Position numbers and translations under genes: made by a program. Under the pieces are notes generated by a model that saw only the letters and a list, made by a program, of their open reading frames with translations, was not told where the DNA came from and did no database searches. Shown here in pieces: positions 5,101 to 5,682 of a DNA stretch of 5,682 nucleotides. Within the stretch, counting starts at the first letter, position 1. Each line of letters begins with the position of its first letter. This DNA comes from Escherichia coli (GTDB lineage Bacteria > Pseudomonadota > Gammaproteobacteria > Enterobacterales > Enterobacteriaceae): NCBI RefSeq assembly GCF_003334785.1, contig NZ_QOWV01000042.1; one strand, given 5' to 3'.

Positions 5101-5610
5101 TCATTTAATTTTTAAATTACGAAGCTCATTATCCAGATAGCGATTCAGCTCGAGGAGCTCGTGGTCATCGCCGAAACTGACGGTTTTCAGGCTCTTGATC
5201 TCATCGTCCAGATAGCGGTTCAGCTCGAGGAGTTCGTGGTCATCGCCGAAACTGACGGTTTTCAGACTCATGATCTCATCGTCCAGATAGCGGTTCAGTT
5301 CCCGGAGTTCGTGGTCATTGCCGAAACTGACGGTTTTCAGGCTCTTGATCTCATCGTCCAGATAGCGGTTCAGTTTCCGGAGCTCGTGGTCATCGCCGAA
5401 ACTGACGGTTTTCAGACTCATGATCTCATCGTCCAGATAGCGGTTCAGCTCGAGGAGCTCGTGGTCATCGCCGAAACTGACGGTTTTCAGGCTCATGATC
5501 TCATCGTCCAGATAGCGGTTCAGTTTCCGGAGCTCGAGGTCATCGCCGAAATTGACGGTTTTCAGACTCATGATCTCATCGTCCAGATAGCGGTTCAGAT
5601 AGAGGAGATC
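5101..5610. repeat. Tandem array of about 6.7 copies of a 75-bp unit at >93% identity, in two alternating sub-variants (..cagctcgaggag.. versus ..cagtt(t/c)ccggag..)
   Basis: This is seen directly: gtggtcatcgccgaaactgacggttttcag(g/a)ctc(t/a)tgatctcatcgtccagatagcggttcag... recurs every 75 bp. Confidence 0.95.
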
Positions 5611-5652
5611 ATAGTCATCGCAGACGCTAACAGTATTAACAATATTTATCAA
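5101..5652 (-). CDS. Second, paralogous hyper-acidic tandem-repeat protein: six 25-aa repeats plus degenerate N- and C-terminal units. No credible start codon; upstream sequence in the same frame is interrupted by TAG at complement(5653..5655) and continues off the right edge
   Basis: On the minus strand six near-perfect repeats LNRYLDDEI[M/K]SLKTVSFGDDHEL[L/R][E/K] follow ..DYDLLY. The upstream frame reads LIELMMYDY*LINIVNTVSVCDDYDLLY, which aligns with the left-edge gene as LIEKLKYEYKMLQNVKSFSVSEDYEHLE, with TAG opposite AAG. The plus-strand antisense ORF (5161..5682) has no ATG or ribosome-binding site and is the mirror image of this frame. The stop lies 14 nt from the cer core. Confidence 0.6.
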   Translation of the reverse strand: MINIVNTVSVCDDYDLLYLNRYLDDEIMSLKTVNFGDDLELRKLNRYLDDEIMSLKTVSFGDDHELLELNRYLDDEIMSLKTVSFGDDHELRKLNRYLDDEIKSLKTVSFGNDHELRELNRYLDDEIMSLKTVSFGDDHELLELNRYLDDEIKSLKTVSFGDDHELLELNRYLDNELRNLKIK

Positions 5653-5682
5653 CTAGTAATCGTACATCATCAGCTCAATTAA

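Follow-up and report, generated by a model that had tools for sequence, protein, structure and literature searches.

The PIN_8 nucleases form a large family, with thousands of clusters on plasmids, prophages and genomic islands. They were classed as being of unknown function in a survey of PIN domains, in which the related DUF4935 genes were mostly monocistronic (Matelska et al., 2017; PMC5499597), and in the literature we found PIN_8 mentioned only in that paper. Here we describe an enterobacterial case in which a PIN_8 nuclease gene is directly followed by a gene for a tandem-repeat protein, on contig NZ_QOWV01000042.1 of Escherichia coli (assembly GCF_003334785.1). This whole stretch of 5682 bases, hereafter the window, belongs to a mobilisable plasmid of the ColE1 type. 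An earlier note, drawn from the letters of the window alone (the original prediction), had seen in positions 5101–5682 near-identical 75-bp coding repeats forming a hyper-acidic, solenoid-like protein that might mimic DNA. The reading that we favour, at about even chances, is that the repeat protein would be a multivalent binding partner, either an immunity protein or a regulator, of the PIN_8 nuclease within a plasmid-borne conflict module.

The nuclease gene lies on the minus strand at 243–1472 and encodes 409 aa, with alternative starts at 1493 and 1406. Its product matches the Pfam family PIN_8 (PF18476; E=1.4e-41; 143 bits, cutoff 26.1) over profile positions 1–218 of 227, and phrog_9788 among the PHROGs (E=2.7e-45). 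The acidic residues D54, E92, D177, D221, D245 and D274 are invariant in an alignment of 27 PIN_8 sequences that includes the window protein; since they are retained, the nuclease is probably active. Its stop codon is separated from the ATG of the repeat gene by a 13-nt spacer (230–242, minus strand) containing the Shine–Dalgarno sequence AAGGAG (236–241). The repeat gene follows PIN_8 at the same spacing in every one of the ~45 contigs where the sequence continues, and the two genes form a tight operon that is predicted to be translationally coupled, a context missed by the original prediction.

An exhaustive HMMER search returned 4818 PIN_8 relatives, with one close clade at 71–74% identity and all others at 35% or less. 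None of ~78 distant PIN_8 genes is followed by a gene that is coupled, repetitive or acidic, and on other small plasmids PIN_8 is the sole cargo, without a repeat partner. The PIN proteins of the paired clade are 387–409 aa long versus a family median of 455 aa, being ~50–70 aa shorter at the C-terminus. Gene fission, by which the repeat protein would derive from the C-terminus of a longer PIN_8 protein, was rejected, as phmmer and a hidden Markov model of the unit found no similarity in 165 PIN_8 proteins. Genes for integrases (5), resolvases (3), IS110 transposases (2), GmrSD (2), TIR (2), NACHT (2) and HNH (2) occur among the 141 open reading frames (ORFs) that are the nearest neighbours of stand-alone PIN_8 genes (80 distant loci, L025–L104), likewise ISL3 transposase and RhuM genes; the classes listed are commoner there than any other family. 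Taken without a background rate, these counts hint that the whole PIN_8 family resides in defence or mobile islands.

Together, PIN_8 and the repeat gene make up a cassette of 2.4 kb that, on ColE1-type plasmids, is flanked by a cer-like site and the origin. ColE1 plasmids devoid of the cassette align to the window only over 1491/1541–5069/5090, so that the cargo consists of exactly these two genes. The cassette is mobile: carrier contigs were found in E. coli, Klebsiella, Citrobacter, Salmonella and Enterobacter, and their backbones vary, with different relaxases, Tn3, a methyltransferase or a reverse-transcriptase gene. It lies, for instance, beside a reverse transcriptase and cold-shock-domain gene pair in L019 (485–1832), beside an N6/N4 methyltransferase in L016 (413–2536) and beside Tn3 in L005 (1–3538). 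It is also rare, being present in 4 of 72,556 PLSDB records (a tblastn search of PLSDB with the repeat protein returned only the same four) and in 1 of 5426 complete E. coli genomes.

A diverged form of the pair, lineage B (L105, L109 and L130), is found on a non-ColE1, integrase-bearing element, near the tyrosine integrase; the contigs related to the window constitute lineage A. In L109, a 210-aa ORF without Pfam match (3538–4170, minus strand) separates the lineage-B cassette from the integrase. The PIN_8 proteins of the two lineages are 74% identical and the repeat proteins 43%, and in lineage B the repeat gene starts 12 nt after the PIN stop codon. Its product, of 322 aa (213 aa in a low-coverage contig), has a homologous N-terminal cap followed by about 9 units of 24–29 aa with the core [LS][SN]RxLDDEI[RK]SL … SFxDDD, the motif common to both lineages being LxRxLDDEIxSL…DD. 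All differences in lineage-B unit length are multiples of 3 (units of 72–87 nt), with the peptide motif kept. Judged from these sequences, the pairing is retained through divergence, PIN_8 and its repeat partner co-diverging.

The architecture of the repeat gene becomes clear on a complete reference plasmid, the circular 5912-bp RCS83_pIII of E. coli ECOR10 (NZ_LT985292.1, our L001), to which window positions 1–5621 are 99.9% identical. The two are colinear, the alignment wrapping the circle in such a way that window position 1 corresponds to reference position 4371 and position 5621 to 4079; 291 bp of the reference (4080–4370), all inside the repeat array, are missing from the window. A single ORF of 346 aa on the reference comprises a 57-aa N-terminal cap (N-cap), 11 units of 25 aa and a 14-aa C-terminal cap (C-cap). 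Given this colinearity with a circular plasmid carrying one such ORF, the repeats at the left edge of the window are unit 1 of the same gene. What had been taken for a second array is the N-cap with unit 1, the 5′ portion of this gene; the contig of the circular plasmid was cut within the array.

On the minus strand of the window, the gene thus begins with the ATG at 227–229 and its N-cap (59–229), whose last ~20 residues form a degenerate repeat unit. This N-terminus is the same in all complete copies. The first unit, NRYLDDEIKSLKTVSFGDD…, is cut by the left contig edge (1–58). At the other end of the contig, six full units of 75 bp or 25 aa (5146–5595), which are units 6–11 of the reference array (99.9% identical to L001 3583–4079), are followed by the C-cap, an AT-rich, degenerate partial unit with the sequence NRYLDNELRNLKIK (5104–5145), and by the stop codon TAA (5101–5103), again at the same place in all complete copies. 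The 75-bp coding repeats of the original prediction are therefore real: Tandem Repeats Finder reports a tandem array at 5125–5621 with a period of 75, 6.6 copies, 91% matches and a score of 791, and the minus strand reads as six full units plus a terminal partial one, with the consensus NRYLDDEI[KM]SLKTVSFGDDHEL[LR][EK]L. They are less uniform than first stated. Units were said to differ at only 3–5 of 75 positions; we find 1–8 differences in the window (mean about 5) and 1–12 in the full array of 11 units. The suggested true period of 150 bp or 50 aa was rejected, since neighbouring units of the full array (lag 1) differ at 5.5 positions on average and next-but-one units (lag 2) at 5.9.

That both strands stay open through the repeats, as had been noticed, is correct (a plus-strand ORF spans 5161–5682) and is a trivial outcome of a unit without stop codons in those frames. 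Conservation does not extend to the antisense ORFs, and the frame that is open on the antisense strand differs between the lineages. In the 12-codon core read on the minus strand, the lineages are on average 4.0 codons apart by synonymous and 4.6 by nonsynonymous changes, while the residues R, L, D, D, E, I, S and L never vary. This synonymous turnover at invariant residues, the unit lengths in multiples of 3, the lack of antisense conservation, the ribosome-binding site and the coupling to PIN_8 settle the minus strand as the coding one, in agreement with the earlier choice. The ground given for that choice, a ribosome-binding site, an ATG and a unique N-terminus on the minus strand, holds for the left edge of the window (227–241) but not for the ORF inside 5101–5682, which has neither an ATG nor a ribosome-binding site and opens with a TTG right behind an in-frame TAG.

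The beginning of that ORF falls in an anomalous contig end (5596–5682, minus strand) joined to unit 6. It is an ungapped copy, about 74% identical, of the gene's own boundary between N-cap and unit 1, is not part of the reference gene, and shows 24 differences in 92 nt, 21 of them transversions and 12 A-to-T changes, one of which creates the in-frame TAG. Because of this end, the ORF at 5101–5652 does not mark the native gene start. The anomalous sequence is absent from the ~45 related contigs, PLSDB, complete E. coli genomes and Joint Genome Institute metagenomes. Mutagenesis of the diversity-generating retroelement type was rejected as an explanation, with only 13 of the 24 differences lying at adenines; the end may be an assembly tip, a chimera or the relic of a diverged paralogue.

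The array is subject to ongoing concerted evolution, as the original prediction had supposed. In a 36-nt core of the unit, the mean difference is 1.9 nt within lineage A and 5.6 nt within lineage B, compared with 11.5 nt between them, so that units are far more alike within than between lineages. The 346-aa gene is represented by 11 distinct DNA alleles; these are polymorphic at 32 sites, 29 of which fall in the array, and polymorphic sites make up 3.5% of the array versus 1.1% of the PIN gene. The minor state was already present at the same position of another unit for 23 of the 29 array sites, where 7% would be expected for random mutation, and several array polymorphisms form tracts of 6–7 sites within one unit. 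Minor states copied from other units, together with such tracts, indicate conversion between units; gene conversion of this kind would keep the array homogeneous at the DNA level. The GC content at third codon positions (GC3) breaks within this one gene, being 0.74 in the internal units, 0.40 in the N-cap and 0.20 in the C-cap, with 0.31 in the neighbouring PIN gene; in the less homogenised lineage B the jump is weaker, 0.54 versus 0.30–0.35 (regions compared: window 1–229 and 5104–5595, L001 3559–4599 and L109 2000–2968). The jump fits either GC-biased conversion or the amplification of one codon-optimised unit.

The number of units seems to be under constraint all the same. Intact genes encode 346 aa with the same unit order in 14 of 19 cases, which include every isolate assembly with an intact gene and cover three PIN alleles and E. 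coli, Klebsiella and Citrobacter backbones. The five deviants (371, 321, 296, 221 and 121 aa) each represent an exact whole-unit change; their sources are metagenome assemblies and one doubtful contig with two rop genes, in all of which repeats may have collapsed. That contig (L015, 9.2 kb) carries the shortest variant and, in view of its two rop genes, is a possible cointegrate or misassembly. Copy number therefore shifts in steps of 25 aa, as anticipated. Array length was further expected to be variable: whole-unit variants do exist, but the length is not freely variable, with 346 aa kept in 14 of 19 intact genes and 11 DNA alleles and the unit order conserved. Whole-unit gains and losses thus occur, and selection would hold the number of units near 11.

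The prediction that the array would be hard to resolve also proved right. It breaks many assemblies, some of them at an identical point that leaves a 76-aa fragment (L024, L118 and L129), and even records labelled complete are broken in it (Klebsiella variicola FDAARGOS_627; E. coli FDAARGOS_1248, split into 2099 + 3816 bp). This amounts to a practical warning, as the array breaks most short-read assemblies of these plasmids. The protein itself is elusive in databases. Exact look-ups of 7 variants of 121–371 aa found all of them missing from a collection of 15 billion protein sequences, even though gene calls for them exist on the contigs of that collection; the sole form present is one of 213 aa from lineage B (P0166), reached with a lineage-B query, and a word-indexed protein search with the repeat protein gave no match. 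The collection may tend to miss proteins that are strongly repetitive.

With an isoelectric point (pI) of 4.7, 25% D+E and 15% K+R, the 346-aa protein carries a net charge of −32, or −0.09 per residue; it is acidic, as had been claimed, but with 15% basic residues and this charge density the label hyper-acidic goes too far. An AlphaFold model of the 164-aa array of the window, folded by itself, shows a helix of ~19 residues and a loop of ~6 residues per unit, with a predicted local distance difference test score (pLDDT) of 55 and a predicted template modelling score (pTM) of 0.18. The complete lineage-B protein P0166, modelled with a small pseudo-alignment, likewise gives helix–loop units (pLDDT 59, pTM 0.18). 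The secondary structure assigned to these models by DSSP agrees with the helix and short turn proposed earlier for each unit. Both models are of low confidence, and on this account neither a solenoid nor a DNA-like spacing of carboxylates can be claimed; a Foldseek comparison of such a low-confidence model with the PDB gave 0 matches. The tandem units share the same predicted secondary structure and the N- and C-caps are degenerate, as in alpha-helical tandem-repeat proteins, and the helix has a single hydrophobic stripe (L5, L8, L12, I16 and L19). We predict a cytoplasmic, acidic, all-helical tandem-repeat protein. In scans against Pfam, NCBIfam, PADLOC and PHROG, no single stretch of it passes on its own; matches to DUF7671, phage_HTJ and phrog_30419 were rejected as artefacts of summing over repeats, with zero stretches passing alone, and a leucine-rich-repeat (LRR) match in Pfam is insignificant (E=0.32).

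How might such a protein act on its partner? Each unit would present the same conserved acidic face, R-x-L-D-D-E-I-x-S-L … D-D, and it is this recurrence in every unit that would make the array multivalent. Bound to PIN_8, the repeat protein would restrain or organise the nuclease, and the pair would serve plasmid-borne defence or addiction. PIN_8 itself has the flavour of a conflict gene, in view of its presence in PHROGs and of the integrases, resolvases, GmrSD, TIR, NACHT and HNH genes among its neighbours. A more specific and rather unlikely version of the binding-partner reading would make the array a ‘rack’ immunity protein, on which ~11 acidic helices of 25 residues each dock one PIN_8 nuclease or its basic helical tail. 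If this were true, one rack protein would sequester many nucleases, and slippage and conversion, by resetting the number of units, would tune the threshold at which a plasmid-borne defence or addiction switch fires.

Several observations weigh against a dedicated binding partner. Most PIN_8 nucleases stand alone, and therefore have no generic need for an inhibitor. With a pI of 5.9, the PIN protein lacks the basic character of the toxin in many toxin/antitoxin pairs; the gene order is the reverse of the classical VapBC order, and the repeat protein has no DNA-binding domain detectable with Pfam or NCBIfam. Neither protein matches the defence models of PADLOC-DB v2 (0 families for PIN_8, insignificant hits only for the repeat protein), and both structure models are of low confidence (pLDDT 55 and 59). 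Part of the conversion signal could stem from short-read assemblies in which near-identical units were mis-phased. Finally, the short variants of 121 and 221 aa, if real, would mean that 11 units are not strictly required.

The same linkage and co-divergence that speak for a binding partner would also be expected if the array were a sensor or specificity subunit, recognising an invader (a phage protein or a polymer) through its multivalent acidic helices and then activating or recruiting PIN_8, in the way that repeat-domain sensors work in other defence systems. This is unlikely. In its favour, the array evolves ~3 times faster than the PIN gene in polymorphic sites; the partner is 43% identical between lineages when the PIN protein is 74% identical, as would suit an arms-race surface; and defence genes do occur in PIN_8 neighbourhoods. 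The variation is, however, that of homogenising conversion and not of diversification, conservation is highest at the putative binding face, and no known defence model in PADLOC is matched. We regard it as improbable that the repeat gene is a functionless, self-expanding ORF that hitch-hikes with PIN_8 and remains open only because its unit is a multiple of 3 without stops. Its rarity, its restriction to one clade and the absence of homologues of known function would suit such an ORF, as would the openness of both strands in the array and the existence of truncated variants and of the window's own disrupted copy. Yet the ORF, its caps and its core motif are kept across lineages whose PIN proteins have diverged by 26%, with synonymous turnover at invariant residues; lineage-B unit indels are all in frame, 346 aa recur in 11 distinct alleles, and the ribosome-binding site and tight coupling are conserved.

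Two further explanations concern DNA more directly. Per residue, Ocr and ArdA carry much more negative charge than the repeat protein, and Pfam-A includes the families of both. The DNA-mimic idea of the original prediction, an anti-restriction or anti-defence protein displaying carboxylates at DNA-like spacing like Ocr, ArdA or DMP-type proteins, is attractive for an acidic, periodic protein on a mobilisable plasmid in which DDE and DD clusters are conserved in every unit. We nevertheless consider it very improbable: the charge density is modest, Pfam-A yields no family matched by any stretch of the protein, a nuclease gene invariably accompanies this gene, unlike those of known mimics, and AlphaFold offers no confident stacked fold, with Foldseek returning nothing. 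No connection with Ocr or ArdA emerged, and the idea is left without support. Tandem direct repeats on a plasmid, adjoining a multimer-resolution site, could also be thought to act as DNA, in the manner of a centromere- or iteron-like array such as sopC of the F plasmid, the ORF being incidental. This is extremely improbable, because conservation operates at the protein level, with synonymous changes, in-frame indels only and units of 72–87 nt that keep the motif; examination of the gene content of the plasmid revealed no partition gene, and the repeat gene is also found on the integrase-bearing element, which is not of the ColE1 type.

Besides the cassette, the window carries rop, mobC, mbeA, mbeB and mbeD. 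The RNAI of the ColE1-type origin (1543–1645, minus strand; Rfam RF00106, 76.5 bits, E=2.6e-13) lies upstream of the PIN_8/repeat operon and in the same orientation, ending ~50–140 nt upstream of the possible start codons of the operon. A simple scan upstream of the operon showed no strong sigma-70 consensus, and expression could be fed by read-through of the RNAI terminator. At the opposite border, a XerC/XerD core of the form GGTGCGTACAA-N7-TTATGGTAAAT (5058–5086, plus strand) is cer-like, judged by comparison with the ColE1 cer consensus. Located 14 nt from the stop codon of the repeat gene, this site marks the backbone edge of the cassette; with the origin as its other boundary, the cassette looks like cargo that is swapped at the Xer site. 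The relaxase gene mbeA is frameshifted by a perfect 26-bp tandem duplication at 3425–3483, yielding a 165-aa product; deletion of one copy restores an ORF of 521 aa. Two copies were found only in the window, the ECOR10 plasmid (L001) and L010, and a single copy in 12 related contigs.

With its conversion footprints, GC3 jump and conserved copy number, this locus is a clear case, provided by nature, of a bacterial protein-coding gene whose repeats evolve in concert. A dedicated partner in an enterobacterial clade also provides an experimental handle on how PIN_8 nucleases are controlled, and functional tests are straightforward, since ECOR10, a standard E. coli reference strain, carries the host plasmid.

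The upstream gene of the cassette is a clear member of the stand-alone PIN_8 or DUF4935-like nucleases, from which the enterobacterial clade differs by its shorter C-terminus and by having gained a dedicated gene for a repeat protein downstream. The pair recalls VapBC type II modules, in which a PIN-fold nuclease gene is likewise coupled to the gene of an acidic partner on plasmids and other mobile elements. However, the nuclease is here a PIN_8 protein of ~400 aa from a family that normally stands alone, as opposed to a VapC of ~130 aa, and the partner is encoded downstream, lacks a DNA-binding domain and is a tandem-repeat protein of 346 aa. The order of a nuclease gene directly followed by that of an acidic partner is also found in pairs of nuclease colicins and their immunity proteins and in barnase–barstar, and ColE1-type plasmids are the classic habitat of the colicin pairs. 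Our cassette, in contrast, contains neither a lysis gene nor a domain for receptor binding or translocation, and immunity proteins are small, globular and non-repetitive, with no sequence relationship to the repeat protein found in Pfam. If it binds the nuclease as proposed, the acidic tandem-repeat protein has analogues, though no more than that, in ribonuclease inhibitor and other repeat-protein inhibitors of nucleases; ribonuclease inhibitor, however, is a beta/alpha horseshoe of LRRs, and the units described here are predicted to consist of a long helix and a loop. T7 Ocr and ArdA share with the repeat protein an acidic character and residence on mobile DNA, and differ in a much higher charge density, in family membership and in having no obligate linkage to a nuclease gene. 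The only sequence matches in the PDB are de novo designed helical-repeat proteins (e.g. 7rdr and 5cwb; E down to 7e-8), which share the pattern of an amphipathic helix preceded by a G-D-[DE]-E-L-L… helix N-cap but have two helices per unit of ~50–57 aa; this resemblance reads as one of pattern and composition, not of homology. Overall, the cassette is a variation on the familiar theme of a nuclease with a partner.

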